From: Escherichia coli
GTDB lineage: Bacteria; Pseudomonadota; Gammaproteobacteria; Enterobacterales; Enterobacteriaceae
DNA: 64,000 nucleotides
Direction: 5' to 3' (one strand)
Assembly: GCF_003790525.1 (NCBI RefSeq)
Contig: NZ_CP033635.1
Numbering within the stretch: position 1 is the stretch's first letter; the number at the start of each line of letters is the position of its first letter. The notes beneath the pieces were generated by a model that saw nothing but the letters and a program-made list of their open reading frames with translations, searched no databases and had not been told where the DNA came from. Positions 45,973 through 63,038 of this stretch are shown one piece after another. Position numbers and translations under genes: made by a program.

Positions 45973-46074
45973 AATTCACATCCTGCCAGTAGAGAGAAAT
46001 TAATGTAAGAGTTCCCGGAGTGCTGAATGTATTCAGCACTCAATTGCGGTCTGTTTTTTTAATTCTTAAATTTA

Positions 46075-46470
46075 TTAGCGGGTCGCGTTATAACAGGTCA
46101 CATCGACTTCGACTTTACAATCGACAACCAGATCAGCCACACAACAAATACGTGCAGGTGGATTCTCGCCAAAAAATTCTCTGAATACTTTATTAAATGA
46201 CTGGAAATAGCGGGCGTCGGTCAGGATCACTTTCACGTGAACCACATCCACCAGGCTATAACCGGCTTCAGTCATGATGTCGACACAGTTTTGAATCGCC
46301 AGTCGTGACTGTTCAACGATTCCGCCTTCTACCACTTCACCGTTTTTCATGGGTGTTTGCCCGGAGACGTACAGCCAGCCGCCCGCCTCAACCGCCCTGG
46401 CAAAAGGCAAATGCTGCCCGCCAGTGCCTGTTCCACCTTCCGTACCGTAACGTTTAATGCTCATATTCAC
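46075..46470 (-). CDS. RidA/YjgF-family reactive-intermediate (enamine/imine) deaminase
   Basis: 131-aa ORF with family motifs LYVSGQTP, ARY..FN.V...FF and conserved Arg in ENPPARICCV. Confidence 0.8.
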   Translation of the reverse strand: MNMSIKRYGTEGGTGTGGQHLPFARAVEAGGWLYVSGQTPMKNGEVVEGGIVEQSRLAIQNCVDIMTEAGYSLVDVVHVKVILTDARYFQSFNKVFREFFGENPPARICCVADLVVDCKVEVDVTCYNATR

Positions 46471-46473
46471 TCC

Positions 46474-47925
46474 TTAATGTGAGGTCTGCCGGCGCAGGAA
46501 GCGTCCCGCACGGCCTGTAATATGTTTATCGGGACCATAGCTCATAACGCCGTTCACCATCACCGCCTCAATGCCATCTGCCGGGCGTTTGGGATCAGAA
46601 AAGCTGGCAACATCACGAATGGTTTGTGGATCGAACAACACCAGGTCCGCAAAATAGCCAACTTTCACCAGCCCACGCTGGGGCAGGCGAAAACGGCTGG
46701 CAGAAAGCCCGGTCATTTTGTGGATAGCCGTGGTCAGTGGGAATAAGCCTTCATCACGGCAATAGTGGCCCAGCACGCGAGGGAAGGCGCCCCATAAACG
46801 TGGATGCGGCATGGGATCATTGGGCAGGCCGTCAGAGCCAATCATACTGACCGGATAACTCAACACTCGGCGGACGTCGCGCTCGTCCATGTTGTAATAG
46901 ATAGCCCCGGCAGGCATTAGCAGCTTCGCGGCCTCCAGCATACTCATCTGCCAGTCGATGGCGATTTGCGCCAGTGTTTTCCCGGCCTGCTGCGGATGTG
47001 TTTGTGACCAGGTGATCACAATATCGAATTCGTCGGTGACTTGTTTGAGATCCAGCGTTGAAGAGCTGGCTGAGTAAGGGTAGACATCGCAGCCAATTTC
47101 CTGGTGTTGACGCATTTGGTCAAAAAAGGCCAACGTTTCTTTTGTCCGCCCCCAGTTTTTCGCCCCGGCGCATTTATGGTGGGAAACCACGACAGGCACT
47201 TTGCCATGACGCCCAATACGAAACGCCTCATCCAGGGCATCGAGAATCGGTTCAAATTCAGAACGCAGATGGGTGGTATAAACGCCCTTCTCACCGGCTA
47301 ATTCTTCCGCCAGCGCCATGACTTCTTCGGTAGTCGCCTGAAATGCCGTTGCATAGGCCAGCCCGGAACTTAACCCCAGCGCCCCCTGACTCAACGCCAG
47401 ACGTAAGTCGGCACGCATAGCGGCAATTTCATCCACCGTCGCCGGGCGAAACAGGTCGTCCATATGGTTATTACGCAGCGCCGTATGACCAATCAGCGTG
47501 CCAACGTTCAGTGACGGCCTGGCTGCTTCCACTGCCTGGGCATAGCTTTCAACGGTAGGATAAATAAAGTGCTCTGCTTCCCCCAACAGATTCATCGGGT
47601 CAGGAACTTCACCTTTCATTTTCGCCGACGCCGCACTAATCCCGCAGTTACCGACAATCACCGTAGTGATCCCCTGGCTGATCTTTGGCAGATATTCCGG
47701 GATGCGAATAACGTTGATATCGTCATGGGTATGAACGTCGATAAACCCTGGTGCCAGCACCCGCCCTTCCCCGTCAATGACCTGCTGCGCCGTAACGTTA
47801 AGCGCAGGGGCAATATCGACAATCCGATCACCTGTTATTGCCACGTCACCGCGAAATTCAGGGCCGCCGCTACCGTCGATAACGGTCACATTTTTGATTA
47901 ACCAGTCAACCTGCATGTTCGTCAC
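46474..47925 (-). CDS. N-acyl-D-amino-acid deacylase (D-aminoacylase), amidohydrolase superfamily
   Basis: 483-aa ORF with N-terminal IKNVTVIDGSG...GFIDVHTHDD metal-binding motif typical of D-aminoacylases. Confidence 0.8.
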   Translation of the reverse strand: MTNMQVDWLIKNVTVIDGSGGPEFRGDVAITGDRIVDIAPALNVTAQQVIDGEGRVLAPGFIDVHTHDDINVIRIPEYLPKISQGITTVIVGNCGISAASAKMKGEVPDPMNLLGEAEHFIYPTVESYAQAVEAARPSLNVGTLIGHTALRNNHMDDLFRPATVDEIAAMRADLRLALSQGALGLSSGLAYATAFQATTEEVMALAEELAGEKGVYTTHLRSEFEPILDALDEAFRIGRHGKVPVVVSHHKCAGAKNWGRTKETLAFFDQMRQHQEIGCDVYPYSASSSTLDLKQVTDEFDIVITWSQTHPQQAGKTLAQIAIDWQMSMLEAAKLLMPAGAIYYNMDERDVRRVLSYPVSMIGSDGLPNDPMPHPRLWGAFPRVLGHYCRDEGLFPLTTAIHKMTGLSASRFRLPQRGLVKVGYFADLVLFDPQTIRDVASFSDPKRPADGIEAVMVNGVMSYGPDKHITGRAGRFLRRQTSH

Positions 47926-48116
47926 TCCATTTCTGCAATGGTGACAAGTTAACCATTTACAAGGACGAAAAACAGTGGAAAACTACGCAAAACCCAGATG
48001 ATTTTATGATACTTTTATTCATAAATAATAAGATAAATAAACTAAATATTTATATTTCATTTAGTTACAAATGATACTCACATCCGATACGGTGAAAAAC
48101 TTAAAAGGTAAATGTT

Positions 48117-49337
48117 ATGAAATACCACTCAGAACCTCTGGTTCCCCATAAATCTGCCCTGATGCAAATGCCCGCAAATCTCCTTGCCGAAGATGTCTGT
48201 TTACCTGCCGCGATCATTAAAAAGCAGGCCCTGGAGAACAACATTACGTGGATGCAACGCTACGCTGACGCGCGCGGCGTTTCACTGGCACCGCACGGTA
48301 AAACCACCATGACGCCGTGGATTTTTCAGGCGCAGCAGGCGGCTGGTGCCTGGGCAATAGGTGTCGGTAGCGCATGGCAGGCTGGTGCGGCAATGGCGAG
48401 CGGTATTCAGCGAGTGCTGATGGTTAACCAGCTGGTCGGCAAGGCGAATATGCAGTTGATTGCCCAGTTGCAACGACATTACCCGACGGTCGATTTTATC
48501 AGCTGTATCGACAGCATTGAGAACGCCCGCGCTTTGTCTGCCTTTTTTGCCAGTCAGCAACAGACACTGAACGTGATGATTGAGTTGGGTGTCCCCGGCG
48601 GGCGCTGTGGTTGCCGCTCAAGGGATGCCGCACTGACACTGGCTAAACAGGCAGCCCAATTACCGGGGTTACGCCTGCGGGGGCTTGAGTTATATGAAGG
48701 CGTTTTACACGGTGACGATCCACAACCGCAGGTAGAAGCTCTGCTGCGGGATGCCGCACAACTGGCCTGTGATATGGCAAGTCTGGTTGATGGCGAGTTT
48801 ATTCTCACCGGAGCAGGCACGGTCTGGTATGACGTGGTGTGCAATATCTGGCTGGCGGCAGAAAAGCCTGATAACTGCCGCATTGTTATTCGCCCTGGCT
48901 GCTACATCACTCACGACACCGGGATCTACGACGCGGCACAACAACAGTTGCTTGCCCGTGATCCTGTGGCTTGCGATCTGGCAGGCGATCTCACATCTGC
49001 ACTGGAACTGGTCGCCATGGTGCAATCGGTGCCGGAAGCTGATCGTGCGGTGGTTAATTTTGGTAAGCGTGATTGCGCCTTCGACGCCGGACTGCCGCAA
49101 CCAGTCGCCCACTATCGCAACGGCAAATCACTGGCATTTGATCCACAGGCGATTCGCAGTACAGGCATTATGGATCAGCACTGCATGTTGCAGTTGGGTG
49201 CCGACAGCGACGTGCAAGTGGGGGATATTCTGGTGTTTGGCACATCGCATCCGTGCCTGACCTTCGACAAATGGAAAACGTTGTTATTGACTGATGACGA
49301 CTACAACGTACTGGCAGAATTAGACACTCTCTTCTAA
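48117..49337 (+). CDS. DSD1-family PLP enzyme (alanine racemase N-terminal fold; D-serine dehydratase / D-threonine aldolase-like)
   Basis: 406-aa ORF with probable PLP-lysine motif LAPHGKTT; RBS AAGG upstream of ATG; divergent from the aminoacylase gene. Confidence 0.72.
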   Translation: MKYHSEPLVPHKSALMQMPANLLAEDVCLPAAIIKKQALENNITWMQRYADARGVSLAPHGKTTMTPWIFQAQQAAGAWAIGVGSAWQAGAAMASGIQRVLMVNQLVGKANMQLIAQLQRHYPTVDFISCIDSIENARALSAFFASQQQTLNVMIELGVPGGRCGCRSRDAALTLAKQAAQLPGLRLRGLELYEGVLHGDDPQPQVEALLRDAAQLACDMASLVDGEFILTGAGTVWYDVVCNIWLAAEKPDNCRIVIRPGCYITHDTGIYDAAQQQLLARDPVACDLAGDLTSALELVAMVQSVPEADRAVVNFGKRDCAFDAGLPQPVAHYRNGKSLAFDPQAIRSTGIMDQHCMLQLGADSDVQVGDILVFGTSHPCLTFDKWKTLLLTDDDYNVLAELDTLF

Positions 49338-49341
49338 GAAC

Positions 49342-49377
49342 GCCCCTTCGGTTAATTATCGAAGGGGCATTTTTATT
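49342..49377 (+). terminator. Rho-independent terminator after the DSD1-family gene
   Basis: GCCCCTTCG-loop-CGAAGGGGC hairpin followed by ATTTTTATT. Confidence 0.6.
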
Positions 49378-49395
49378 GTGATCTCAATCACATAT
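49374..49395. promoter_or_regulatory. CRP binding site in btsT promoter
   Basis: TATTGTGATCTCAATCACATAT with perfect TGTGA-N6-TCACA core. Confidence 0.6.
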
Positions 49396-49420
49396 CCACC
49401 CGACGAATAATTCTTGCCCA

Positions 49421-49448
49421 ACCGCTCACCGCCATTCCTGACCGCTTA
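49421..49448. promoter_or_regulatory. BtsR (YehT, LytTR-family) direct-repeat binding motif in btsT promoter
   Basis: Direct repeat ACCGCTCA ... ACCGCTTA with 12-bp spacer upstream of btsT. Confidence 0.55.
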
Positions 49449-49604
49449 CATCCCTAAAATAACCACTCAGTTATTTACCTTACTTTACGCGCGCGTAACT
49501 CTGGCAACATCACTGCAGGATAGCGGTCAATTTACCTCCTCAAACGCAACGCAAACCTAGAACGGCTTCGGCCAACTATTAATCAATACATGCCAGGTTT
49601 TACT

Positions 49605-51755
49605 ATGGATACTAAAAAGATATTCAAGCACATACCCTGGGTGATTCTCGGAATCATCGGTGCATTCTGCCTCGCGGTAGTTGCATTACGTCGGGGGGAG
49701 CACGTCAGTGCCCTGTGGATCGTGGTCGCCTCTGTGTCGGTGTATCTGGTGGCTTATCGCTACTACAGTCTGTACATCGCCCAGAAGGTGATGAAACTCG
49801 ACCCCACGCGCGCGACGCCTGCGGTTATTAACAACGACGGTCTGAACTATGTTCCGACCAACCGTTACGTGTTGTTTGGTCACCACTTCGCCGCTATCGC
49901 CGGTGCTGGTCCGCTGGTTGGTCCGGTTCTCGCCGCGCAGATGGGCTACCTGCCTGGCACGCTGTGGCTGCTGGCGGGGGTAGTGCTGGCCGGTGCGGTA
50001 CAGGACTTTATGGTGCTGTTTATCTCCTCTCGCCGTAACGGCGCATCTCTCGGTGAGATGATCAAAGAAGAGATGGGACCAGTACCGGGGACTATCGCGC
50101 TGTTTGGCTGTTTCTTAATCATGATCATCATCCTTGCCGTCCTGGCGCTGATTGTGGTTAAAGCCCTGGCCGAAAGTCCGTGGGGTGTCTTCACCGTTTG
50201 CTCAACCGTACCGATTGCGCTGTTTATGGGTATCTACATGCGCTTTATTCGTCCGGGGCGTGTGGGTGAAGTCTCTGTCATTGGTATCGTGCTGCTGGTT
50301 GCCTCTATCTACTTCGGTGGCGTGATTGCTCACGATCCGTACTGGGGTCCGGCACTGACCTTTAAAGACACCACCATTACCTTCGCGCTGATTGGCTATG
50401 CGTTTGTTTCCGCACTGCTGCCAGTGTGGCTGATCCTCGCACCGCGCGACTATCTGGCAACCTTCCTGAAAATCGGCGTTATCGTCGGCCTGGCGCTGGG
50501 TATCGTGGTGCTGAACCCGGAACTGAAAATGCCTGCGATGACCCAGTACATTGACGGTACTGGCCCGCTGTGGAAAGGCGCTCTGTTCCCGTTCCTGTTC
50601 ATCACCATCGCCTGTGGTGCGGTATCTGGCTTCCACGCGCTGATCTCTTCCGGTACGACGCCGAAACTGCTGGCTAACGAAACCGACGCGCGTTTCATTG
50701 GCTACGGCGCAATGCTGATGGAGTCCTTCGTGGCGATTATGGCGCTGGTTGCTGCGTCCATCATCGAACCGGGTCTTTACTTCGCGATGAACACCCCGCC
50801 TGCTGGCCTTGGCATCACCATGCCTAACCTGCATGAAATGGGTGGCGAGAACGCGCCGATCATCATGGCGCAGCTGAAAGACGTTACCGCACACGCGGCA
50901 GCGACCGTCAGCTCCTGGGGCTTCGTGATTTCGCCAGAGCAGATCCTGCAAACAGCGAAAGATATTGGTGAGCCTTCTGTCCTGAACCGTGCAGGTGGTG
51001 CGCCGACGCTGGCGGTAGGTATCGCTCACGTGTTCCACAAAGTGCTGCCGATGGCTGACATGGGCTTCTGGTATCACTTCGGTATTCTGTTCGAAGCCCT
51101 GTTCATCCTGACCGCGCTGGATGCGGGTACCCGTTCTGGCCGCTTTATGCTGCAAGACCTGCTGGGTAACTTCATCCCGTTCCTGAAAAAAACCGACTCT
51201 CTGGTTGCCGGTATCATCGGTACTGCGGGCTGTGTGGGTCTGTGGGGGTACCTGCTGTATCAGGGCGTGGTCGATCCGCTGGGCGGCGTTAAGAGCCTGT
51301 GGCCGCTGTTCGGTATCTCCAACCAGATGCTGGCAGCCGTAGCGCTGGTACTGGGCACCGTTGTGCTGATTAAGATGAAGCGCACCCAATACATCTGGGT
51401 AACTGTTGTTCCGGCTGTATGGCTGCTTATCTGCACCACCTGGGCGCTGGGCCTGAAACTGTTCAGCACCAACCCGCAGATGGAAGGCTTCTTCTACATG
51501 GCAAGCCAGTACAAAGAGAAGATTGCTAACGGTACTGACCTGACGGCACAGCAGATTGCCAACATGAACCACATCGTTGTGAACAACTACACCAACGCGG
51601 GCCTGAGTATTCTGTTCCTGATTGTGGTGTACAGCATCATCTTCTACGGTTTCAAAACCTGGCTGAAGGTGCGTAACAGCGACAAACGTACTGACAAAGA
51701 AACTCCGTACGTTCCAATCCCGGAAGGCGGCGTGAAGATCTCTTCGCACCACTAA
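49605..51755 (+). CDS. btsT: Pyruvate/H+ symporter BtsT (YjiY), CstA family
   Basis: ORF track 49590..51755; conserved start MDTKKIFKHIPWVILGIIGAFCLAVVAL. Confidence 0.95.
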   Translation: MDTKKIFKHIPWVILGIIGAFCLAVVALRRGEHVSALWIVVASVSVYLVAYRYYSLYIAQKVMKLDPTRATPAVINNDGLNYVPTNRYVLFGHHFAAIAGAGPLVGPVLAAQMGYLPGTLWLLAGVVLAGAVQDFMVLFISSRRNGASLGEMIKEEMGPVPGTIALFGCFLIMIIILAVLALIVVKALAESPWGVFTVCSTVPIALFMGIYMRFIRPGRVGEVSVIGIVLLVASIYFGGVIAHDPYWGPALTFKDTTITFALIGYAFVSALLPVWLILAPRDYLATFLKIGVIVGLALGIVVLNPELKMPAMTQYIDGTGPLWKGALFPFLFITIACGAVSGFHALISSGTTPKLLANETDARFIGYGAMLMESFVAIMALVAASIIEPGLYFAMNTPPAGLGITMPNLHEMGGENAPIIMAQLKDVTAHAAATVSSWGFVISPEQILQTAKDIGEPSVLNRAGGAPTLAVGIAHVFHKVLPMADMGFWYHFGILFEALFILTALDAGTRSGRFMLQDLLGNFIPFLKKTDSLVAGIIGTAGCVGLWGYLLYQGVVDPLGGVKSLWPLFGISNQMLAAVALVLGTVVLIKMKRTQYIWVTVVPAVWLLICTTWALGLKLFSTNPQMEGFFYMASQYKEKIANGTDLTAQQIANMNHIVVNNYTNAGLSILFLIVVYSIIFYGFKTWLKVRNSDKRTDKETPYVPIPEGGVKISSHH

Positions 51756-51763
51756 CCGTGTTT

Positions 51764-51792
51764 AGCCCCGCTTCGGCGGGGCTTTGTTCTTA
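51764..51792 (+). terminator. Hairpin terminator after btsT
   Basis: GCCCCGC-TTCG-GCGGGGC followed by TTTGTTCTT. Confidence 0.5.
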
Positions 51793-51804
51793 TCAGAGTG
51801 AACT

Positions 51805-52008
51805 ATGTTTGGTAACTTAGGACAGGCAAAAAAATATCTCGGCCAGGCGGCGAAGATGTTGATTGGCATTCCAGACTACGACAACTACGTCGAGCATATG
51901 AAGACCAACCATCCCGACAAGCCGTACATGAGCTATGAAGAATTCTTCCGCGAACGCCAGAACGCGCGCTACGGCGGCGATGGTAAAGGCGGTATGCGCT
52001 GTTGTTAA
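51805..52008 (+). CDS. yjiX: Small protein YjiX (YbdD/YjiX family, DUF466)
   Basis: 67-aa [61 protein letters not shown]. Confidence 0.85.
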
Positions 52009-52018
52009 TGGAGAGAGC

Positions 52019-52975
52019 ATGAACCCGATTGCAGTTACCCTACTCACCGGTTTTTTAGGCGCGGGCAAAACCACCCTGCTGCGCCATATTCTTAATGAAC
52101 AGCACGGCTACAAAATTGCCGTGATTGAAAACGAATTCGGCGAAGTCTCCGTTGATGATCAACTGATTGGCGATCGCGCCACGCAGATCAAAACGCTGAC
52201 CAACGGCTGCATCTGTTGTTCGCGCTCCAACGAGCTGGAGGACGCGCTACTCGACCTGCTGGATAATCTCGACAAGGGCAATATTCAGTTCGACCGTCTG
52301 GTCATTGAATGCACAGGCATGGCCGATCCCGGCCCGATTATTCAGACCTTTTTCTCCCATGAGATTTTATGCCAGCGTTACCTGCTGGACGGCGTGATTG
52401 CGCTGGTGGATGCGGTACATGCCGATGAGCAGATGAACCAGTTCACCATCGCCCAGTCACAGGTTGGCTACGCCGACCGTATTCTGCTGACTAAAACCGA
52501 CGTCGCAGGTGAAGCAGAAAAACTGCGCGAACGCCTGGCACGCATCAACGCCCGCGCACCGGTCTACACCGTCACCCACGGCGACATCGACCTGGGCCTG
52601 TTGTTCAACACCAACGGTTTTATGCTGGAAGAAAACGTCGTCAGCACCAAACCGCGTTTCCACTTTATCGCGGATAAACAAAACGATATTTCGTCGATTG
52701 TGGTGGAACTGGATTACCCGGTAGATATCAGCGAAGTTTCCCGCGTGATGGAAAACCTGCTGCTGGAATCGGCGGATAAACTGCTGCGTTACAAAGGGAT
52801 GCTGTGGATTGACGGCGAACCTAACCGCCTGCTGTTCCAGGGTGTCCAGCGCCTCTACAGCGCCGACTGGGACAGGCCATGGGGCGATGAAAAACCGCAT
52901 AGCACGATGGTGTTTATCGGGATTCAGCTGCCGGAGGAAGAGATTCGGGCGGCGTTTGCGGGGTTAAGGAAGTAA
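52019..52975 (+). CDS. yjiA: CobW/HypB-family GTPase YjiA
   Basis: ORF track 51935..52975; conserved start MNPIAVTLLTGFLGAGKTTLLRHIL (P-loop) and CxCC motif GCICCS. Confidence 0.9.
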   Translation: MNPIAVTLLTGFLGAGKTTLLRHILNEQHGYKIAVIENEFGEVSVDDQLIGDRATQIKTLTNGCICCSRSNELEDALLDLLDNLDKGNIQFDRLVIECTGMADPGPIIQTFFSHEILCQRYLLDGVIALVDAVHADEQMNQFTIAQSQVGYADRILLTKTDVAGEAEKLRERLARINARAPVYTVTHGDIDLGLLFNTNGFMLEENVVSTKPRFHFIADKQNDISSIVVELDYPVDISEVSRVMENLLLESADKLLRYKGMLWIDGEPNRLLFQGVQRLYSADWDRPWGDEKPHSTMVFIGIQLPEEEIRAAFAGLRK

Positions 52976-53305
52976 TACCCTTAACCTACTAATACGAAGC
53001 GGACGAGGATAAAACCCTATCATTTTCCGTTCGCTTCACTATTTTATTTCGTTCCAACACCCATTAAAATTAAAAATATAATTCTGCCATAATTTCCTGA
53101 ACACAGATGTAATTACATTGCCACCACTCATACTTTTAAAAATAATTTATATGATAGACGTCCTATTGAGGCGTAATAGATGTATTAATTTCCAAATACG
53201 CAAACATTCTGGTACAGTCCAAAAAAGAAAAATCATCAACCAAAACAATCAGCAAATAAATTAACAACGATTGAATCATAATCAACACGAATACAAGAGA
53301 TTAAC

Positions 53306-55156
53306 ATGGCAACAATAATCCCAACAATCAGTAGCTGCAACGATAAAATTACTGCCGGAGAGAAAAGGCTGGCAAGAATTCTGGAAAGAGGACTAGGCGA
53401 AGAGTGCTGCTGTTGGTATGACATTCCCACGGGTGATAAGCATCTTCACCCAGATTTTATGATACTTTCGCCAGAAAAAGGCATTATTTTTCTCGAGGTA
53501 AAAGATTGGTTTATTACAAAAATAAAAAAAGCCAACAAGTCTAATGTGTTGTATGAGACACAAAATGGTATTCAATCTTTAAAGAATCCGATAGAACAAG
53601 TTAGGCGATATGCTTTCGAAGCTGTAAACCAGTTAAAAAAAGACCCCCTATTGTGCCAACAGGATGATCGTTACAATGGCAATCTTCTTTTCCCCTATGG
53701 ATATGGCGTCTACTTTAGTAATATTACACGAGAAGCATTAAATAATAAATTTACTCAAGAAGAGCTGCTCGGGATCTTCCCATCAGATCTCATCATCTGC
53801 AAAGACGAAATAAATGAATTCATGTCAAAAGAGGATGTTTCATCCAAAATACATTCGTTGATTAAATATGACTTCAAATGTCATGCTACACAAGAACAGT
53901 TGAACAGGATTAGATGGCACTTATACCCCGATGTCAGAATAGAAAGGGAAAAGAGAAGTAAAAACCGTGATGAATTTAGTGTCGATGCACCAACCATCAT
54001 TTCTATCCTGGATACTCAACAGGAACAACTTGCCAGAAGTATGAGAGATGGCCACCGGATCATTCATGGTGTTGCAGGTTCAGGGAAGACATTGATCCTC
54101 TATCATCGCTGTCAGGAATTAGCGAAAAAAAATGACAGCGAAAAGCCAATTCTTGTCATTTGCTACAATATTACTTTAGCCAAAAAACTTCGGTCGATGT
54201 TCATCAATCATCCCTTTGCAGAGAAAATAAAGGTTAAAAATTTTCATGCTTGGTGTTTCCAACAAATTAAAGAAAACAAGATCACTATTCCAGAAGGGGA
54301 TAATATTTTTGAAAATATGGAGCTAGCGTTGACTGATGGTTTCAAGACAGGAAAAATAAAACCAGAACAATACAGCGCTGTATTAATTGATGAAGGACAT
54401 GATTTTAAGCCAGAATGGTTAAAAATCCTGGCAAAAATGACTGACTCTCAGGACGAGAATTTGCTATTCCTTTATGATGATGCTCAGTCAATTTACCAAA
54501 AAAAGAAAGCATTAGACTTTACACTGTCCAGCGTAGATATTAAAGCGACAGGACGCACAACCATTCTTAATATAAATTATAGAAACACACAGCAAATCCT
54601 ACACTTTGCCAGTTGCATTGCATTTAATTATCTTAATAGCCATATCGATAGTTCTTTAACCTATCATAAACCTGCTGCGGGAGGAATGAATGGCGATTAT
54701 CCCAACCTTGAACATTTCGACACACAGGACGAAGAAATAGCACGAGCAGTCGAATGGATTACAGAGCAAAATGAACAAGGGATTCCGTGGTCTGAAATTG
54801 CTATACTAAGTCCATCAACTCACACCCTTTCTAACTCTCTAAGCTCTGTACTTGAATCGAAAAACATCCCCTTTAATCTTATTGTAAGCTCTGCAGATAA
54901 AAAGTCCTGGACGCCAGAACAAGAGCGTATTTCTGTTATGCCATTACCCAGCAGTAAAGGACTTGAGTTTCACTCAGTTGTCATTATTGATGCAGCGAGA
55001 ACACGGGATAATAGCGATGATTTGAGTGAGGATATAAAGAGACTCTATGTAGGTTTTACCCGAGCACGTTGCAATCTCTTGGTAACCTTGCACGGTGAAG
55101 GTGCGTTAAATGAGCATCTACTAAAAACCTATGAGCAAAGCCCACAATATATGTAA
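53306..55156 (+). CDS. NERD (PD-(D/E)xK-like nuclease) domain fused to SF1 UvrD-like helicase/ATPase, 616 aa; candidate single-gene defence protein
   Basis: N-terminal HPDFMILSPEKGIIFLEVKDW (D..E.K nuclease-like core); Walker A GVAGSGKT (aa 255-262), Walker B LIDEGHDF, motif VI-like VGFTRAR; gene is low-GC and sits where K-12 has mrr-hsdRMS. Confidence 0.8.
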   Translation: MATIIPTISSCNDKITAGEKRLARILERGLGEECCCWYDIPTGDKHLHPDFMILSPEKGIIFLEVKDWFITKIKKANKSNVLYETQNGIQSLKNPIEQVRRYAFEAVNQLKKDPLLCQQDDRYNGNLLFPYGYGVYFSNITREALNNKFTQEELLGIFPSDLIICKDEINEFMSKEDVSSKIHSLIKYDFKCHATQEQLNRIRWHLYPDVRIEREKRSKNRDEFSVDAPTIISILDTQQEQLARSMRDGHRIIHGVAGSGKTLILYHRCQELAKKNDSEKPILVICYNITLAKKLRSMFINHPFAEKIKVKNFHAWCFQQIKENKITIPEGDNIFENMELALTDGFKTGKIKPEQYSAVLIDEGHDFKPEWLKILAKMTDSQDENLLFLYDDAQSIYQKKKALDFTLSSVDIKATGRTTILNINYRNTQQILHFASCIAFNYLNSHIDSSLTYHKPAAGGMNGDYPNLEHFDTQDEEIARAVEWITEQNEQGIPWSEIAILSPSTHTLSNSLSSVLESKNIPFNLIVSSADKKSWTPEQERISVMPLPSSKGLEFHSVVIIDAARTRDNSDDLSEDIKRLYVGFTRARCNLLVTLHGEGALNEHLLKTYEQSPQYM

Positions 55157-55174
55157 AAATGATAAATTATCTCC

Positions 55175-55206
55175 ATAACGCCCGGTAACGCTGTACCGGG
55201 CGTTAT
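55175..55206 (+). terminator. Stem-loop downstream of the NERD-helicase gene (possible terminator; no clear T-run)
   Basis: 13-bp perfect inverted repeat ATAACGCCCGGTA ... TACCGGGCGTTAT with 6-nt loop. Confidence 0.4.
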
Positions 55207-55288
55207 GAATGTATATCTAAGATATTAGTCACGCCTGATAGCCGCTACCAAAAACGCCATCATCTCCCTCTCATCTTTGCTGTGATAA

Positions 55289-55594
55289 AAGCGTACCATT
55301 TTGCTGTTAAATTCCAGCGCTTTAGCCACTGGAATTAACAAGTTCAAACTTCCGACAACGAAGTTCCAGTTATTACAAAAATTACTGGCAAAAGAGATGA
55401 AAAGCGTAGTTGACAACACATCGAAATATACTGACTGGAGTAAACGCGATGATATTAAAGCGAAACTGAAAGTTGAACTTATTCTGCTTCTACACAAGCA
55501 TAAGTTCCCGCCAGTAGCGAATGATGATGTTTATATGGGTGTGCTGGCACAGGCAGAGAATTTTAAAGAACATCATATGAGTGCTTTAAATTAA
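55289..55594 (+). pseudogene. Possible 3' remnant of a type I restriction enzyme R-subunit (HsdR C-terminal region)
   Basis: Frame opens only at 55289 after a stop, no upstream coding partner; product ...TDWSKRDDIKAKLKVELILLLHKHKFPPVANDDVYMGVLAQAENFKEH resembles the conserved HsdR C-terminal YPP-containing motif as recalled. Confidence 0.4.
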
Positions 55595-55713
55595 TTATGA
55601 AGGCCGGATACACTTTGTTATCCGGCCATTGTGAATTAACGTTAATTTCTCTTCCAGATATTTCCAGTAACGCTTTTATTATTTTCTATTTTTAGCTGGA
55701 CTTTCCCTGTATT

Positions 55714-55733
55714 TACTGATGATATGTCCAGGT
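55714..55733. promoter_or_regulatory. LexA (SOS) box upstream of symE
   Basis: TACTGATGATATGTCCAGGT contains CTG-N10-CAG with AT-rich spacer about 80 bp upstream of symE start. Confidence 0.5.
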
Positions 55734-55749
55734 ATTTAGCGCGGTGCGA

Positions 55750-55830
55750 ATGTGCGCCAACACACCCGCACCGCTCATCACAATCACTATTTATGGAGAA
55801 TAGTAATCATGACTGACACGCATTCTATTG
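55750..55830 (-). ncRNA. symR: Expected position of SymR antisense sRNA overlapping the symE 5' end (approximate)
   Basis: Placed by established knowledge that SymR is transcribed antisense across the symE RBS and start codon; ends not determined from sequence. Confidence 0.35.
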
Positions 55831-56150
55831 CACAACCGTTCGAAGCAGAAGTCTCCCCGGCAAATAACCGTCAATTAACCGTGAGTTATGCGAGTCGCTA
55901 CCCGGATTACAGCCGTATTCCCGCCATCACCCTGAAAGGTCAGTGGCTGGAAACCGCCGGTTTTGCTACCGGCACGGCGGTAGATGTCAAAGTGATGGAA
56001 GGCTGTATTGTCCTCACCGCCCAACCACCCACCGCCGAAGAGAGCGAACTGATGCAGTCACTGCGCCAGGTGTGCAAGCTGTCAGCGCGTAAACAAAAGC
56101 AGGTGCGGGAATTTATTGGGGTGATTGCCGGTAAACAGAAAGTCGCCTGA
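55809..56150 (+). CDS. symE: SOS-induced type I toxin SymE (YjiW), AbrB/MazE-fold endoribonuclease-like
   Basis: ORF track 55752..56150; conserved start [48 protein letters not shown]. Confidence 0.9.
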
Positions 56151-56196
56151 TACATTGACCCGGTAGCGCCAGTGCTACCGGGTATTATTCGCCGTG

Positions 56197-58290
56197 TTAG
56201 ACCAACGCGCTCTCCATCTGTTTTTCAAATGCCTGACGAATTAATCCCATAACGTAAGGAAGTTGTGCGAGGTCGCTGAAACCAATTTCCACATCACCAT
56301 TGCCCCAGCGCCCAACATTTGTCACATCTTTGGCAATACCTTTCGGATCGACCAGTTCATGAAACTGCATATTAAGCGACAATCGCAGTCGGCTTTTTTG
56401 CGGCACAACATCAACAAAATTCGTTTCCGCTTTAAACGCAATATAGAGCTTCAATACTTCCTGCGTGATCCCTGCGTCCAGGCGCATAACTTCATCGCGA
56501 AGATGATCAAATAACACCCGGCTATGCGAACCATCAGCAAGAAAAGGATAATCACTCAGGCTATAACTGGTTTTGTTTTCAGGCTGCGCCCGATAAACAG
56601 CTAAAACCTCTTCAGGAAGAGCAGGCGCTTGCCAGACCTGAACCGCGAGATCGGCCAGACGATCGGCACGGGCGCGAATGGCGGCTTCATCCCATTTTTC
56701 GCACTGTCCAAGACCGATATTCAAATAAAGCGGGCTATGCTTAAAGCCGTCTTCAATATCGCGTTTTTCCGCGAAAGGTCTGTCACTGTAGCGGGAGTTA
56801 TAGCGCGTTAATGTGAGATTCCCCAACGTATGTAACAGTTCTTTATGCACACGCTGCCAGTCGCTTCCCAGCTCTTCACGCCATTTAGCCGACAAATTTT
56901 CGTTCTGCGGCATAATATGCTCAATCGTAAACTCTTCCACGCGCTCTCTGCGTTTATCGTTTTCCAGTCGTCGTAACCAGTAGCTGCGACTGCGGAAGTT
57001 ATAGAGATCGCGAACTTTTAATTCCCGTTTAAATTCATCATCGTTGGGGAAACGACGATATGAAGGCAGATTCAGAAAATGTACCTGAATACTTTCCAGA
57101 TATTTTTCTTTAATAATGACCTTATAAAAGGTAGCAAACGTCTTGTTAAGAGAATTTGTCGGAATCGCACATACTGCACGGCGGAAAACATAAGATTCAA
57201 TTAAACGAATTATGCTCAGGAAATCTTCGTGAGGCAAATCGCCATTTTTATAGTCATGATAAAGCGCCAGTAAGAAAGGATACGCCACATCGACCTTTAA
57301 CTCGCGCAAATCCTGAAAAGCCGTAGCAAGCGATTTGTCACTTTCTTTACCCAATGCCATTGCACAGTAATACTCCGCGTAGATGTGAATATCTTCAACC
57401 AGGTGATCCACGCCTTTTTCAGCAACACTCTGGCTGCGGGCATGGAGTTTAAATGCCTCATAGACTTCATCTGTACGAGGGATCTCCCCCGTTTTTACCG
57501 TCAGATAATGACGCATAAAGCTGTCAAAATATTCGCTGTAACCTTGCTGACCAAAAGCGACTTCCATTGGACGCCAGTGATCTTCATACAACCGGGTTTG
57601 ATGCTCTGGTTCGAGACCCATCAGAATAAAATTGCGCACCAGATCGGCCTGACTTAACGCCTTACCGGTAGAGTTCATACTTTCAAAAATCAGTTGCGGA
57701 TTATCCTGACCACGATTAAGCGCCACATCGACAATTAATAATTTTGCTAACCCACGACATAAGGGGATCAAGTCATCACCGAGTTTGGCAATTTGCTCAT
57801 CAAAGAAAGTAAAGTTTTCCATTATTCGATGGGAATAGTTTTCTGGCATTGGTCTTTGTTTTATTAACGCCAGCAAACTGTCTTTATCAGTCTCGGTCAG
57901 CAGTAATTTAAATCCTTTCTCGCCGGACTCATAAGGATTGAGTAAATAATAATTACGCAATTTCATTGCTGAAAAGCCATCAAAAACTTCGTCTTCGCCA
58001 AGATGACGCGATAAAGCCTCAATCAGCAACATTGCGGTCGTCAGCCTTTGTTGACCATCAATGACCAGTAACGGAGAAATACCAGAAACCTGATACAACC
58101 CCTGCTCAATATAAACAACCGAACCGATAAAATGCGCTGATATATCGTCACGCTTTCCGGCACGAATGATGTCGTCCCAAAGTTGCCGACATTGTTGTTC
58201 TGTCCATGAATAAGTCCGTTGATAAATGGGAATCACAAACTGCTGCGAACGTTTTAAAAAATCGAGTAGGCGGGCTTCTGTAGCTTTCAT
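56197..58290 (-). CDS. DUF262 (ParB-like NTPase) + DUF1524 (His-Me finger nuclease) fusion, GmrSD-family putative type IV modification-dependent restriction endonuclease
   Basis: 697-aa ORF with N-terminal VIDGQQRLTT (DGQQR motif) and C-terminal EFTIEHIMPQN...H..LGNLTL nuclease motif; convergent with symE, in the slot where K-12 has mcrBC. Confidence 0.78.
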   Translation of the reverse strand: MKATEARLLDFLKRSQQFVIPIYQRTYSWTEQQCRQLWDDIIRAGKRDDISAHFIGSVVYIEQGLYQVSGISPLLVIDGQQRLTTAMLLIEALSRHLGEDEVFDGFSAMKLRNYYLLNPYESGEKGFKLLLTETDKDSLLALIKQRPMPENYSHRIMENFTFFDEQIAKLGDDLIPLCRGLAKLLIVDVALNRGQDNPQLIFESMNSTGKALSQADLVRNFILMGLEPEHQTRLYEDHWRPMEVAFGQQGYSEYFDSFMRHYLTVKTGEIPRTDEVYEAFKLHARSQSVAEKGVDHLVEDIHIYAEYYCAMALGKESDKSLATAFQDLRELKVDVAYPFLLALYHDYKNGDLPHEDFLSIIRLIESYVFRRAVCAIPTNSLNKTFATFYKVIIKEKYLESIQVHFLNLPSYRRFPNDDEFKRELKVRDLYNFRSRSYWLRRLENDKRRERVEEFTIEHIMPQNENLSAKWREELGSDWQRVHKELLHTLGNLTLTRYNSRYSDRPFAEKRDIEDGFKHSPLYLNIGLGQCEKWDEAAIRARADRLADLAVQVWQAPALPEEVLAVYRAQPENKTSYSLSDYPFLADGSHSRVLFDHLRDEVMRLDAGITQEVLKLYIAFKAETNFVDVVPQKSRLRLSLNMQFHELVDPKGIAKDVTNVGRWGNGDVEIGFSDLAQLPYVMGLIRQAFEKQMESALV

Positions 58291-58386
58291 TCTGACGTCT
58301 TTCCGTGAAGCGATGATTTCGCAATAATAACCACTTCCTTGTGGAGGTTATAGAGAAATCCTGTTTATCCGCGACGAACTGCCCCA

Positions 58387-58551
58387 TCACTCCACATCCT
58401 CCCTGCGTAACCCAATATCCCTCAACCGCTCATCACTCATCTGCTGTAACACCCGCCGGGCCTGCATTTGCCGCCGCCAACGCCTCACTGCCTGCCAGAG
58501 TTGCACAAGTCCAATAAACGGTGCTTTAGCTTTGTTTTCGTGAAATTCCAT
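58387..58551 (-). CDS. yjiS: Small DUF1127 protein YjiS (54 aa; below the ORF-track length cutoff)
   Basis: Manual minus-strand translation MEFHENKAKAPFIGLVQLWQAVRRWRRQMQARRVLQQMSDERLRDIGLRREDVE. Confidence 0.8.
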   Translation of the reverse strand: MEFHENKAKAPFIGLVQLWQAVRRWRRQMQARRVLQQMSDERLRDIGLRREDVE

Positions 58552-58727
58552 CTGCTGCCTCCTCATCTTTCAGAGGCTTCATCATCCGCCTTCTGGCAGT
58601 TCACAATACAGATGCAAATATTAGTTTTATTTAACATACAGACAGGTTAAAACAGCATCTGCATCCGGTTTTTTAGCCTCATCTGTACCGGTTTTTCTCT
58701 CTGTATGGTCCAAATAAGGAATACAGC

Positions 58728-60140
58728 ATGACGCGTTATCAACATCTGGCGACTTTGCTTGCCGAGCGGATTGAGCAAGGGCTGTATCGTCACGGGGAGA
58801 AATTGCCGTCGGTGCGCAGCTTAAGTCAGGAGCACGGCGTCAGCATCAGTACCGTGCAGCAGGCGTACCAGACGCTGGAAACGATGAAGCTCATCACTCC
58901 GCAGCCGCGTTCGGGTTATTTTGTCGCACAACGTAAAGCCCAGCCGCCAGTACCGCCGATGACGCGTCCGGTGCAGCGCCCGGTGGAAATTACCCAGTGG
59001 GATCAGGTGCTGGATATGCTGGAGGCGCATAGCGACAGTTCCATTGTTCCGTTAAGTAAAAGCACGCCGGATGTCGAAACGCCCAGCCTGAAACCGCTGT
59101 GGCGGGAGCTAAGCCGGGTGGTGCAGCATAATCTGCAAACCGTTCTCGGTTATGACTTGTTAGCCGGCCAGCGGGTATTGCGCGAGCAGATTGCCCGCCT
59201 GATGCTCGACAGCGGCTCGGTGGTCACCGCCGATGACATCATCATCACCAGCGGCTGCCATAACTCGATGTCGCTGGCGTTGATGGCAGTGTGTAAACCG
59301 GGCGATATTGTCGCGGTCGAATCCCCCTGTTATTACGGTTCGATGCAGATGCTGCGCGGCATGGGCGTGAAAGTGATTGAAATCCCCACCGATCCAGAAA
59401 CAGGCATCAGCGTTGAAGCGCTGGAACTGGCGCTGGAGCAGTGGCCGATTAAAGGCATCATTCTGGTGCCAAACTGTAATAATCCGCTGGGATTTATTAT
59501 GCCGGACGCGCGCAAACGGGCCGTTCTCTCTCTCGCTCAGCGTCATGATATTGTGATTTTTGAAGATGATGTCTACGGCGAACTGGCGACGGAGTATCCG
59601 CGCCCGCGGACCATTCATTCCTGGGATATCGACGGGCGAGTGCTGTTGTGCAGCTCGTTCAGTAAAAGTATTGCTCCAGGCCTGCGCGTGGGTTGGGTCG
59701 CACCGGGGCGCTATCACGATAAACTGCTGCATATGAAATATGCCATCAGCAGCTTTAATGTGCCGTCCACGCAAATGGCGGCGGCAACGTTTGTGCTGGA
59801 AGGTCACTATCATCGCCATATCCGGCGGATGCGGCAGATCTATCAGCGCAATTTGGCGCTTTATACCTGCTGGATACGGGAATATTTTCCCTGCGAAATC
59901 TGTATTACGCGCCCGAAAGGCGGATTTTTACTGTGGATCGAATTGCCTGAACAGGTCGATATGGTTTGCGTTGCGCGGCAGCTATACCGCATGAAAATCC
60001 AGGTGGCGGCAGGCTCGATTTTCTCAGCTTCCGGCAAATACCGTAATTGTCTGCGCATCAACTGCGCTTTGCCGCTCAGCGAAACCTATCGCGAAGCACT
60101 GAAGCAAATTGGCGAAGCCGTGTATCGGGCAATGGAATGA
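58728..60140 (+). CDS. yjiR: MocR/GabR-type regulator YjiR (GntR HTH fused to PLP aminotransferase-like domain)
   Basis: 470-aa ORF with N-terminal HTH (LPSVRSLSQEHGVSISTVQQAYQTLE) and aminotransferase-like C-terminal domain. Confidence 0.9.
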   Translation: MTRYQHLATLLAERIEQGLYRHGEKLPSVRSLSQEHGVSISTVQQAYQTLETMKLITPQPRSGYFVAQRKAQPPVPPMTRPVQRPVEITQWDQVLDMLEAHSDSSIVPLSKSTPDVETPSLKPLWRELSRVVQHNLQTVLGYDLLAGQRVLREQIARLMLDSGSVVTADDIIITSGCHNSMSLALMAVCKPGDIVAVESPCYYGSMQMLRGMGVKVIEIPTDPETGISVEALELALEQWPIKGIILVPNCNNPLGFIMPDARKRAVLSLAQRHDIVIFEDDVYGELATEYPRPRTIHSWDIDGRVLLCSSFSKSIAPGLRVGWVAPGRYHDKLLHMKYAISSFNVPSTQMAAATFVLEGHYHRHIRRMRQIYQRNLALYTCWIREYFPCEICITRPKGGFLLWIELPEQVDMVCVARQLYRMKIQVAAGSIFSASGKYRNCLRINCALPLSETYREALKQIGEAVYRAME

Positions 60141-60254
60141 ATTCGAAATAGTGGCGAGCCCCCTGATTTCCTCTCACGAATAGCGTGTGACTCGTTTTAT
60201 CTTTGCAGGGTCATCTCCACGTTCCAGCATGGCTTAGGCAAAATGCGCTTCGTT

Positions 60255-60360
60255 CATGCCGGATGCCATGTGAACACCTTACCAGGTCTACAAAATCTTT
60301 AAAATTCAATATATTTAATGGGTTATGTAGACCTGATAAGCGTAGCGCATCAGGCTGCTT
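60255..60360. repeat. REP-like elements between yjiR and rpnD
   Basis: GCCGGATGCC...CCTTACCAGGTCTACA and TGTAGACCTGATAAGCGTAGCGCATCAGGC palindromic units. Confidence 0.6.
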
Positions 60361-60382
60361 TGCGTTTGTCATCAGTCTCTGA

Positions 60383-61339
60383 TTAGTACTCGATCCATGG
60401 ATCGCGCTTGCTTTCAGGCAAGGGCTGCTCTAATGCCTGCATTTGCTCTGCCGAAAGTCCGGTATATCGTTGTATCCATTCAGGATCCGCCCCATTCTGC
60501 AACAACAATCGGAGGAGGCTCTTTTCCCCTTCTTCTTTCCCTTCTTTCCTCCCCCTCTCCCTTCCCAACAGCCATCCATCATTATGAATTCGCTCTGCAA
60601 TCGTCATTATTCGCTCCCTGTGTTGTGGCATTCGACGGATAAGTTCGCTGATAAACTCATTAAAACGCGCTTCATCGCCAGTCAGTAAAATGTAATTTAA
60701 CAGCGCGGTTATCTGGCTGTCATTAGCGCACCCTGTAACCAGTAATACTGCCAGTTGATCAATAAGCCCCATTAGATCGCGCTGGCGAATATGCTTTTGG
60801 ATCAACTCCAGCAGGGCGACTCTGCGATGCTGCACAATCTCGTCGTCTGGCACGACAGTGACATCCACCAGCGGGAACGCTGCGGTATAAAGCTTCCGCG
60901 CGGTAGCCGGGTCGGCAAATTCATCCAGCCAGCACAAAGACCAGGGGTAAGGACTACGGCTACTGTGATAAAACAGCATCGGGATGACCAGCGGTAGCGG
61001 CCGGCGTTTATCATGCTCGATATGGCGCTGCATCACCGCCATGGAATATCGCATCAGGCGAAAGGCCATATGGATATCCTCGCGGCTCTGATGTTCAATC
61101 ACCACATAAATATAGCCATCTCCTTCGCGGGTCTTTACCGACCACAGAATATCGGAATGTAGCGCCCGCAATTTTTCATCGACAAAGCTGGCGTATTCCA
61201 GTTTTAAGCTGTCGAGATCGCACAGTTCACGTAAATCTTTGGGTAAGTGGATCTCCATAAAATCCCGCGCGGTGTCAGGGTGGGTGAGAAAAGATTTAAA
61301 TAATGCGTCATGCGGCGTGCTGGTCGTGAAGTTTGTCAT
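60383..61339 (-). CDS. rpnD: Rpn-family recombination-promoting nuclease (YhgA-like, PD-(D/E)xK), intact 318-aa copy at the yjiP/yjiQ (rpnD) position
   Basis: [45 protein letters not shown]...[10 protein letters not shown] matches the Rpn/transposase_31 family N-terminus. Confidence 0.85.
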
Positions 61340-61805
61340 GGCGATCCGTCACCTGTAGATAAGATGGCCCGACTGTAGCGACTAACAAAACCATTCTCAC
61401 CCGGCAATTTCTCGTTCCCCGAGGTGCTTTCCAGGCTATTTTTGTTCCTCTGCAAACGATACATTTTTCCGGAAACAGGCTCGCGTTTTACATTTCCTGT
61501 ACCCGGCAGATATTCCCCTTTCCACCGCACTCTTTTGATTAACCGCAAATTTTAATTACACTTAAGGTGTATATTTTCTATGCAACCCATCAATTCAAGA
61601 GGTGTAATGTGCTGATGACTATTTGTAATCGTTATACATTCTGACCTGGAGTCAGAAGGTATTTCTCTGTCTGTGTGTTCACAGGCAGTGTGGTTGATTA
61701 CATGAAATTCAGTACATTTGCCCTTCTCGCCTGCCTTTCGTCATTACCGACGGTATTGAATTTCGTTTTCCCCATTGGGGTTCTCCGGACAAGGAGTTGT
61801 TTGTT

Positions 61806-63038
61806 ATGCCACGTTTTTTTGCCCGCCATGCCGCCACGCTGTTTTTCCCGATGGCGTTGATTTTGTATGACTTTGCTGCGTATCTGTCGACGGACCTGAT
61901 CCAGCCAGGGATCATTAATGTGGTCCGTGATTTTAATGCCGATGTCAGTCTGGCCCCGGCTGCCGTCAGTCTCTATCTCGCTGGAGGCATGGCATTGCAG
62001 TGGCTGCTGGGGCCGCTTTCCGACAGGATTGGCCGCAGGCCGGTGCTGATTAACGGGGCGTTAATTTTTACCCTTGCCTGCGCCGCGACAATGTTCACCA
62101 CGTCAATGACACAATTTCTTATCGCGCGTGCAATTCAGGGCACCAGTATCTGTTTTATTGCCACCGTTGGTTATGTCACGGTGCAGGAGGCGTTCGGACA
62201 GACAAAAGGGATCAAGTTGATGGCGATTATCACCTCCATCGTACTGATTGCGCCGATTATCGGCCCGCTTTCCGGCGCAGCTCTGATGCACTTTATGCAC
62301 TGGAAAGTCCTTTTTGCCATCATTGCGGTTATGGGTTTTATCTCATTTGTTGGCTTACTGTTGGCGATGCCAGAGACGGTGAAGCGCGGCGCGGTTCCGT
62401 TTAGCGCCAAAAGCGTCTTGCGCGATTTTCGTAATGTCTTTTGCAATCGGCTGTTCCTCTTTGGCGCAGCAACCATCTCTTTAAGCTATATCCCGATGAT
62501 GAGTTGGGTGGCTGTCTCGCCGGTGATCCTGATTGACGCAGGCGGCTTAACGACCTCGCAGTTCGCCTGGACACAGGTTCCGGTGTTCGGCGCGGTGATT
62601 GTTGCGAATGCCATCGTGGCGCGTTTCGTTAAAGATCCGACCGAACCGCGGTTTATCTGGCGTGCCGTGCCCATTCAACTGGCCGGCCTCGCACTGTTGA
62701 TTGTCGGCAATTTGCTGTCGCCACACGTCTGGCTGTGGTCGGTGCTGGGCACCAGTCTGTATGCTTTCGGGATTGGTTTGATTTTCCCGACCTTATTCCG
62801 CTTTACGCTGTTTTCCAATAACTTACCGAAAGGGACCGTCTCCGCATCGCTAAATATGGTGATCCTGATGGTGATGTCGGTCTCGGTCGAAATCGGCCGC
62901 TGGCTGTGGTTTAACGGCGGTCGCTTGCCGTTTCATCTGTTAGCCGTTTTAGCGGGCGTTATCGTCGTTTTCACCCTGGCGGGATTGCTCAATCGCGTGC
63001 GCCAGCATCAGGCTGCCGAGCTGGCGGAGGAGCGGTGA
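61806..63038 (+). CDS. mdtM: Multidrug efflux MFS transporter MdtM (YjiO)
   Basis: ORF track 61797..63038; conserved start [27 protein letters not shown]; MFS motif [13 protein letters not shown]. Confidence 0.9.

Follow-up and report, generated by a model that had tools for sequence, protein, structure and literature searches.

A stretch of 64,000 nucleotides of Escherichia coli DNA (contig NZ_CP033635.1; this whole stretch is hereafter the window) contains, at positions 53306–55156 of the + strand, a gene for a 616-residue protein in which a NERD-type nuclease module is joined to a UvrD-like superfamily 1A (SF1A) helicase. A first-pass annotation of the same DNA had reported this open reading frame (ORF) together with a set of nuclease and helicase motifs; the frame is intact, and the motifs lie at the residues given for them. 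The gene had also been placed after yjiA and before symE, where K-12 carries mrr-hsdRMS, and the flanks agree with this placement: yjiA ends at 52975, 330 bp of intergenic DNA separate it from the fusion gene, symE occupies 55809–56150, and the K-12 order at the same site is yjiA-mrr-hsdR-hsdM-hsdS-symE. In keeping with its description as hypervariable, the yjiA-yjiR interval corresponds to the classical immigration control region, listed as hotspot #36 in a survey of the E. coli pan-genome. From about 53000 to 55700 the GC content is 0.35–0.41, as compared to 0.52–0.58 in btsT/yjiA and 0.52 in symE, so that the gene is indeed AT-rich relative to the flanking core genes. Positions 44900–64000 of the window are identical, base for base, to E. 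coli SMS-3-5 (NC_010498.1), whose counterpart gene is 100% identical (WP_000190966.1); the RefSeq name of this protein, "3'-5' exonuclease", is an automatic annotation and carries no experimental weight. The features of the locus are as follows.

52977..53305, + strand: left end of the cassette, a 329-bp AT-rich leader and presumed native promoter region (homology break; GC about 0.36).
53306..55156, + strand: NERD/UvrD-like SF1A helicase fusion gene with an ATG start, 616 residues (ORF list, Pfam, full-length match to the PADLOC model C3a187).
55172..55209, + strand: GC-rich hairpin with a stem of 14–16 bp (terminator-type scan, RNA fold).
55332..55594, + strand: 3' remnant of a type I hsdR gene, marking the right junction as the scar of a replaced restriction-modification (R-M) operon (PADLOC, RefSeq, colinearity with strain NC101).

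The borders of the cassette can be drawn to the base pair. Homology to yjiA of E. coli NC101 and of Enterobacter ends at 52976, one nucleotide past the yjiA stop codon, and colinearity with intact hsdR, in NC101 and many other strains, picks up at 55384, within the last ~210 nucleotides of hsdR, placing the junctions at 52976/52977 (left) and 55383/55384 (right). The cassette of about 2.4 kb, with a GC content of 36–40%, consists of the leader, the single gene and the hairpin, which starts 15 nucleotides past the stop codon. The hsdR stump corresponds to positions 963–1027 of the 1029-position PADLOC model REase_I (E = 1.5e-25) and is annotated by RefSeq as a pseudogene "missing N-terminus". 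NC101 carries hsdM, hsdS and hsdR between the same flanks, in the order yjiA-brnA-brnT-restriction endonuclease-hsdM-hsdS-hsdR-symE-yjiS-yjiR. Judged by this comparison, the cassette has taken the place of a toxin-antitoxin pair, a restriction endonuclease gene and the greater part of a type I R-M operon, which bears out the earlier proposal that a type I system had been lost here. Immediately ahead of the colinear hsdR 3' end, a 63-bp scrap of hsdR at 55332–55394 matches a part of NC101 hsdR (locus L017, 11652–11714) whose place in the intact gene is ~350 bp more upstream; because this scrap is displaced, the replacement must have involved an internal deletion or rearrangement rather than one clean breakpoint. 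Horizontal acquisition of the cassette, likewise proposed before, is supported by its low GC content, its exact junctions and its patchy presence in the species: of 5426 complete E. coli genomes, 100 (1.8%) have the gene, each as one chromosomal copy with 98–100% identity. One of these copies is disrupted by IS903B.

The leader contains a sigma-70-like site, TTGCCA-17-AATAAT, at 53118–53146; in a promoter scan of the leader, candidate sites were no more numerous than expected from shuffled sequence. The hairpin has a predicted folding energy of −27.2 kcal/mol (z = −5.05; none of 200 shuffles folds as well) and is probably a transcription stop or an RNA-stabilizing element closing the cassette. 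As its + strand has no U-tract, a terminator role is put forward tentatively.

The protein can be divided into three parts.

53306..53926, + strand: N-terminal nuclease domain, residues 1–207, with the NERD PD-(D/E)xK core at residues 17–110; candidate catalytic residues D50 (53453–53455), E64 (53495–53497) and K66 (53501–53503).
53927..53989, + strand: flexible linker, residues 208–228 (predicted local distance difference test score, pLDDT, below 50 in both models; length and sequence vary in the alignment).
53990..55153, + strand: SF1A helicase core of the UvrD/Rep/PcrA type, residues 229–616.

Pfam matches NERD (PF08378) at residues 17–110 (independent E = 3.8e-8), a domain that precomputed assignments likewise give for nearly all homologs, AAA_19 at residues 238–398 (E = 1.1e-9) and UvrD_C at residues 421–526 and 537–596, with UvrD_C_2 also matching; a NERD-type module next to a complete SF1 UvrD-like core, as read in the first-pass annotation, is thus recovered. 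The nuclease motif stretch, HPDFMILSPEKGIIFLEVKDW, spans residues 48–68 and is followed by a conserved extension of the nuclease domain (residues 111–207). The helicase motifs comprise Q239, GVAGSGKT (255–262; K261 encoded at 54086–54088), LIDEGHDF (360–367; DEGHD at 362–366), NITLA, YDDAQSIY (390–397), NYRNT (424–428), SSKGLEF (549–555) and VGFTRAR (582–588; YVGFTRA at 581–587). They make up the complete SF1A set (Q, I, Ia, II, III, IV, V and VI), with motifs III–VI in the form seen in UvrD, Rep and PcrA.

An AlphaFold model (pLDDT 80.7) shows a compact N-terminal domain, a disordered linker and a helicase core in which the 1B and 2B inserts are short. In fold searches with the full model, UvrD, PcrA and Rep were the best matches (E ~1e-15, TM score ~0.46), followed by SLFN11, Upf1 and GajB. 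The N-terminal domain matched the PD-(D/E)xK nucleases Can2, Cdn1, Card1, NucC, Shedu SduA, McrC, HamA, Hna and Upx; most of its matches are defense effectors, with NucS, Bax1 and several restriction endonucleases also among them. SLFN11, SLFN12 and SLFN14 were moderate matches of the N-terminal domain as well as of the full model. A sequence search of the PDB returned only local matches, to UvrD, PcrA, Rep and HelD, and no solved structure with a NERD-UvrD architecture, and a PHROGs search yielded generic helicase families only. No NCBIfam family reached its cut-off; because all equivalogs (UvrD, Rep, PcrA, HelD, RecB and AddA) scored far below it, at 15–58 bits against cut-offs of 419–1697, the fusion protein is not an ortholog of a housekeeping helicase.

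The protein belongs to a large family. A word-indexed search retrieved more than 7000 homologous clusters at 90% identity, the best 120 of which all comprise ~600–630 residues and share the architecture, an exhaustive search of 50%-identity representatives found 508 clusters at E ≤ 1e-30, and a scan of one genome per species gave at least 538 relatives. Gamma- and Betaproteobacteria, Cyanobacteria, Verrucomicrobia, Nitrospirae/Nitrospinae and Chloroflexi, as well as others, are among the taxa of the relatives listed. In an alignment of 30 sequences with 42–64% identity (A1), D50, E64 and K66 are invariant and the helicase motifs invariant or nearly so. Given the thousands of like clusters and the invariant active-site residues, the fusion gene is real rather than a chance ORF. 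Among 230 full-length members, reaching down to ~29% identity, 214 have the D-ExK triad, 227 have the helicase catalytic residues and 211 (92%) have both; as triad and helicase residues are co-conserved, the two predicted activities are selected together. Strong purifying selection on both predicted catalytic sites is evident from these alignments across the family. A homolog at L018 1917–3746 (protein P0175) has QTL in place of EVK, and 15 other members have likewise lost the nuclease triad; such members could be regulatory or decoy variants.

Homologs occur on 138 plasmid records, including E. coli IncF/IncK plasmids, a Vibrio harveyi conjugative plasmid, Nostoc plasmids and a Ralstonia megaplasmid, and tblastn found none among 50,697 phage records. 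The E. coli IncF/IncK plasmids carry a paralog with ~39% identity to the chromosomal gene (NZ_AP027831.1, locus L020, 9043–10791; NZ_CP055049.1, locus L021, 9043–10788). This paralog adjoins a RelE/ParE-NadS toxin-antitoxin pair, a recombinase and insertion sequence (IS) elements, with umuDC and ArdA/DNA-methylase leading-region genes within ~6–9 kb.

The surroundings of the homologs are heterogeneous. The Enterobacter kobei homolog lies directly after yjiA and that of Klebsiella aerogenes directly after yjiR, i.e. in the same hotspot and alone in both cases. A Serratia homolog adjoins a ScoMcrA-like HNH protein, Mrr and HipA, a Vibrio splendidus homolog sits at the integrase end of a P2-like prophage, and on the V. 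harveyi conjugative plasmid the gene is found near methyltransferase and HNH protein genes. When 722 ORFs located within 6 kb of the gene at 80 loci were clustered, they fell into 652 clusters, of which 596 were confined to a single locus; the largest was represented at four loci, with varying offset and strand. Since no conserved partner emerged from the 80 loci, one gene is the functional unit, as the first reading had it. Pfam assignments for 142 ORFs adjacent to the gene and 150 more distal ones, with at most two members in each of the 20 commonest families listed, give a picture of heterogeneity rather than a measure of enrichment. Two distant metagenomic homologs reside on contigs too short for context.

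We also scanned neighbors at 25 species-level loci, with four sampled ORFs per locus, against PADLOC models (E ≤ 1e-8). The nearest upstream and downstream ORFs gave a match in 8 of 50 cases, to type I/III methyltransferases, ThsA, PD-Lambda-1, a pAgo-associated SIR2 protein, NsnB, PDC-S41/Nhi-like and DndA, and ORFs 7–10 kb away in 4 of 40 (AbiEi, HamA, PDC-S05 and mad2). At least one of the four sampled ORFs matched a defense model at 11 of the 25 loci; R-M, Thoeris, Menshen, PD-Lambda-1, Hachiman and AbiE genes are often found alongside the gene. These matches agree with frequent residence in defense islands and provide supportive context rather than a demonstrated enrichment.

Based on these results, we suggest that the fusion gene is probably, though by no means assuredly, a stand-alone, horizontally mobile nuclease-helicase gene with a role in defense against mobile genetic elements, namely phages and possibly plasmids. 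It forms a single-gene cassette without a fixed partner, occupies variable "island" positions as well as plasmids and is missing from the phage records searched, and related NERD-helicases adjoin type III CRISPR loci (C3a187) and UG34 reverse transcriptases. Because no experiment on the fusion protein or a close homolog was found, we infer the defense role from domain logic and genomic context, which render it plausible.

UvrD, Rep and PcrA, like other SF1A enzymes, load on single-stranded DNA (ssDNA) and move 3' to 5'. By analogy, the helicase of the fusion protein would load on ssDNA or DNA ends, as presented by phage replication or recombination intermediates or by incoming conjugative ssDNA, and would translocate 3' to 5' at the expense of ATP. 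Translocation could feed the DNA to, or position, the tethered and presumably Mg2+-dependent NERD nuclease, which would then cut. The outcome might be direct degradation of foreign DNA, as proposed for Nhi, or indiscriminate cutting and, with it, abortive infection, as in the cases of Hna, AbpAB and Hachiman. Host DNA would most likely be spared either by activation through a complex of a phage replication protein with ssDNA (e.g. a single-stranded DNA-binding protein, SSB) or by a requirement for free DNA ends.

Several observations weigh against a defense role or against this mechanism. We found no published experiment on a single-chain NERD-UvrD protein or a close homolog, in a search outside of which many subscription-journal papers lie. 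How the nuclease and helicase modules are oriented to each other is poorly predicted (predicted TM score 0.54), and neither a sensor nor a modified-base reader domain was recognized in the protein. About 7% of the family lack an intact nuclease triad, with the helicase residues all kept. Several loci, e.g. in Microbulbifer and E. kobei, are solitary among metabolic genes, and one of the adjacent PADLOC matches, DndA/SspA, is probably an ordinary IscS-like cysteine desulfurase. Finally, the proportions of matching adjacent and distal ORFs do not differ (Fisher p = 0.54, a comparison made without a genome-wide background); as the ORFs 7–10 kb away match defense models themselves, they do not constitute an independent background.

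Four other explanations were weighed. The one that survives best, albeit as an unlikely one, is that the gene serves as a weapon or maintenance function of mobile elements, directed against rival plasmids, islands, prophages or conjugative ssDNA and with little effect on lytic phages. An ssDNA-requiring SF1A motor would suit conjugative entry, and the plasmid-borne homologs, conjugative IncF/IncK and V. harveyi plasmids included, and the V. splendidus homolog beside a prophage integrase fit such a role. However, all 100 E. coli copies of the gene are chromosomal, in a hotspot cassette that has neither integrase nor transfer genes, and the neighbors in other taxa are mostly anti-phage systems. 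This explanation also overlaps with the stand-alone defense gene that we favor, the target being the sole difference.

Slightly less likely again is an accessory enzyme of DNA repair or recombination that, in the manner of RecB/AddA, NucS or UvrD, would act for the host on stalled forks, DNA ends or damaged DNA. A UvrD-type motor and a PD-(D/E)xK nuclease are the building blocks of RecB/AddA, the N-terminal domain has NucS and Bax1 among its fold matches, some loci lie among metabolic genes and the E. coli plasmid paralog is not far from umuDC. A host repair function is difficult to reconcile with a gene that is patchily present, always in a known variable hotspot in E. coli, of foreign GC content, IS-disrupted in one copy, devoid of partner subunits and frequently accompanied by defense genes, and every repair-helicase equivalog scores far below its cut-off.

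We consider a type IV-like role improbable, in which the protein would be a modification-dependent restriction enzyme driven by ATP, following the logic of SauUSI or McrBC and occupying the slot of Mrr, McrBC or GmrSD. Its location would be apt, as type IV enzymes cluster in the immigration control region and a GmrSD-family gene lies next to it (see below), the fold matches include McrC and several restriction endonucleases, and the nuclease domain has a conserved, functionally unassigned extension at residues 111–207. Yet neither Pfam nor PADLOC detected an SRA, winged-helix Mrr-N, DUF262, PUA or other modified-base reader domain in the protein, and UvrD-type motors track ssDNA whereas known ATP-dependent restriction enzymes use superfamily 2 or AAA+ translocases that act on double-stranded DNA.

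An accessory effector of type III CRISPR-Cas dependent on cyclic-oligoadenylate signaling, as the label C3a187 implies, is rejected for this locus as highly improbable, since, despite a full-length C3a187 match, the listing of that family beside type III cas cassettes and the Can2, Card1 and Cdn1 folds among the nuclease-domain matches, no cas genes lie in the annotated 19 kb around the gene or at ~100 other inspected loci, Pfam detects no CARF or SAVED domain in the protein, and the roughly three occurrences in the 2018 table could be explained by simple co-residence in defense islands.

If plaque assays confirm a stand-alone defense function, the gene would be a compact, one-gene (1.85 kb) addition to the E. 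coli defense repertoire, and a family of several hundred 50%-identity clusters would gain a function; its members presently carry RefSeq labels such as "3'-5' exonuclease", "AAA family ATPase" and "NERD domain-containing protein", and in PADLOC the family figures only as a CRISPR accessory. It would also offer a clean model for the long-standing question of how a single-chain nuclease-helicase tells foreign from self DNA without a modification partner. As the concept of a motor combined with a nuclease is well established, any advance would be of an incremental kind, short of a new principle. The locus itself documents, at base-pair resolution, the exchange of a type I R-M operon for a single-gene cassette plus an hsdR stump, and its position in a well-known hotspot, together with the size of the uncharacterized family, makes the gene a good and cheap candidate for plaque assays.

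Further genes of the immigration control region were inspected in the window. The hsdR stump is directly followed by an intact type I toxin-antitoxin pair, symE/symR, with symR at 55738–55814 (− strand; Rfam match of 92.8 bits) and symE at 55809–56150 (+ strand; NCBIfam match of 226 bits); the listed 132-residue symE ORF begins upstream of the annotated 113-residue SymE. A second single-gene cassette, missing from NC101, lies between symE and yjiS (56127–58386). Its gene (56197–58290, − strand) encodes an intact, 697-residue DUF262/DUF1524 protein of the GmrSD family, which matches the PADLOC model "Orf5" (E = 1.7e-222) and, in its C-terminal region, PDC-S18, and which is probably of the Eco94GmrSD type that substitutes for McrBC in some strains. 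The sequence shows a continuous ORF; in RefSeq, SMS-3-5 has it split into a 387-residue coding sequence and a separate DUF262 pseudogene. Between yjiR and mdtM, at about 60383–61339 (− strand; locus L001, 15484–16440), lies a gene for an Rpn-family recombination-promoting nuclease/putative transposase. As NC101 has it as well, this gene is a conserved resident of the variable region.

Among known systems, the closest relative is a catalogued one. The fusion protein matches the PADLOC model PDLC01087, "C3a187, NERD+UvrD", over residues 1–599 (model positions 1–547 of 559; E = 1.3e-140, 467.9 bits), and the family and domain description are the same. C3a187 is cluster 187 of Shah et al. (2018), with Dole_0738 as the reference gene, an uncharacterized candidate accessory of type III CRISPR-Cas whose row in the published table appears to hold only about three occurrences. 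The family was thus proposed beside type III cas genes, but here and at nearly all examined loci the gene stands alone, without cas genes nearby; as such genes and CARF/SAVED domains are missing, the CRISPR link of C3a187 probably reflects island co-residence. The family is catalogued bioinformatically as a candidate CRISPR accessory cluster, not as a stand-alone system. The first-pass annotation had put the gene forward as a candidate undescribed defense, which is correct only in part: PADLOC-DB models the family, though as an uncharacterized candidate. Likewise, the profile searches it had suggested returned generic Pfam domains, as would befit a novel system, but also this full-length named model of an uncharacterized CRISPR-accessory candidate.

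A distant sister family with the same architecture is RTasNERD-Hel of PADLOC (cluster 485 of Mestre et al., 2022), which the protein matches weakly but over its full length (77 bits; residues 1–594, model positions 1–510 of 519). Cluster 485 adjoins UG34 reverse transcriptases (Mestre et al., 2022); no reverse transcriptase gene is present in the locus studied here. NERD effectors have been validated experimentally in HEC-02, and NERD domains also occur in PglW, DndF and Mokosh I. HEC-02, consisting of an ABC ATPase and a NERD protein, DefensePredictor DS-26 "NERD", a 532-residue Upx-like protein, and ZwsA, a NERD RNA endonuclease, come nearest in the literature but are unrelated.

Other systems resemble the fusion protein in design. 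RecB/AddA employ the same type of motor, but have a C-terminal nuclease and function together with partner subunits, whereas the fusion protein has an N-terminal nuclease and no partner. GajB of Gabija, which is among the structure and profile matches, likewise has a UvrD-like SF1A motor that works with a nuclease against phage DNA, but requires a separate GajA (ABC ATPase-TOPRIM nuclease), while the fusion protein has its nuclease in the same chain. Assignment to Gabija was rejected, as GajB models match only locally (≤72 bits) and the neighbors are yjiA and the hsdR stump, with no GajA-like gene among them.

Nhi of Staphylococcus epidermidis (Bari et al., 2022) and the "Nhi-like" proteins (Millman et al., 2022) combine an HsdR-like or other nuclease with a DUF2075 (PF09848) helicase, and Nhi is proposed to act on phage replication intermediates and to destroy phage DNA selectively. 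They share with the fusion protein the layout of a single chain, acting alone, with the nuclease at the N-terminus and an SF1 helicase at the C-terminus, a likeness of design and not of sequence family, as the fusion protein combines NERD with AAA_19 and UvrD_C domains that exhibit canonical SF1A motifs III–VI. The Nhi profile (PDLC02372) scores 34 bits, with its best stretch at residues 235–295 in the P-loop region, AbiO scores 46 bits (residues 235–297), and PF09848 is marginal (independent E = 2.6e-4, 20.8 bits), whereas the UvrD-type models and motifs fit. Membership in the Nhi family was rejected on these grounds, so that the earlier designation "Nhi-like" stands for the architecture but not for the family. 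At two loci, e.g. L085 (7254–9731, − strand; alignment A3), the ORF adjoining the NERD-UvrD gene encodes a T5orf172/MUG113 nuclease joined to a DUF2075 (SLFN-g3) helicase; the L085 copy matches PADLOC PDC-S41/AbiO/Nhi. At these loci, a true Nhi-like architecture is found right beside a NERD-UvrD gene.

Hna, DdmD, DruE, HamAB and the eukaryotic Schlafen group III proteins (SLFN11) follow the same principle of a motor combined with a nuclease. For the last of these, the moderate fold matches of both halves of the model to SLFN11, SLFN12 and SLFN14 provide a hint that the fusion protein might be a bacterial counterpart. That the family constitutes a widespread defense in its own right, in hundreds of species and on plasmids, with a mode of sensing unlike those of Nhi, Hna and Gabija, and possibly as a counterpart or relative of Schlafen group III, is an unlikely proposal; in one such scheme, the UvrD-type motor would license the tethered NERD nuclease only on ssDNA-protein intermediates of phages or plasmids. 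Of all these systems, Nhi offers the best functional analogy for the fusion protein, at the level of design.

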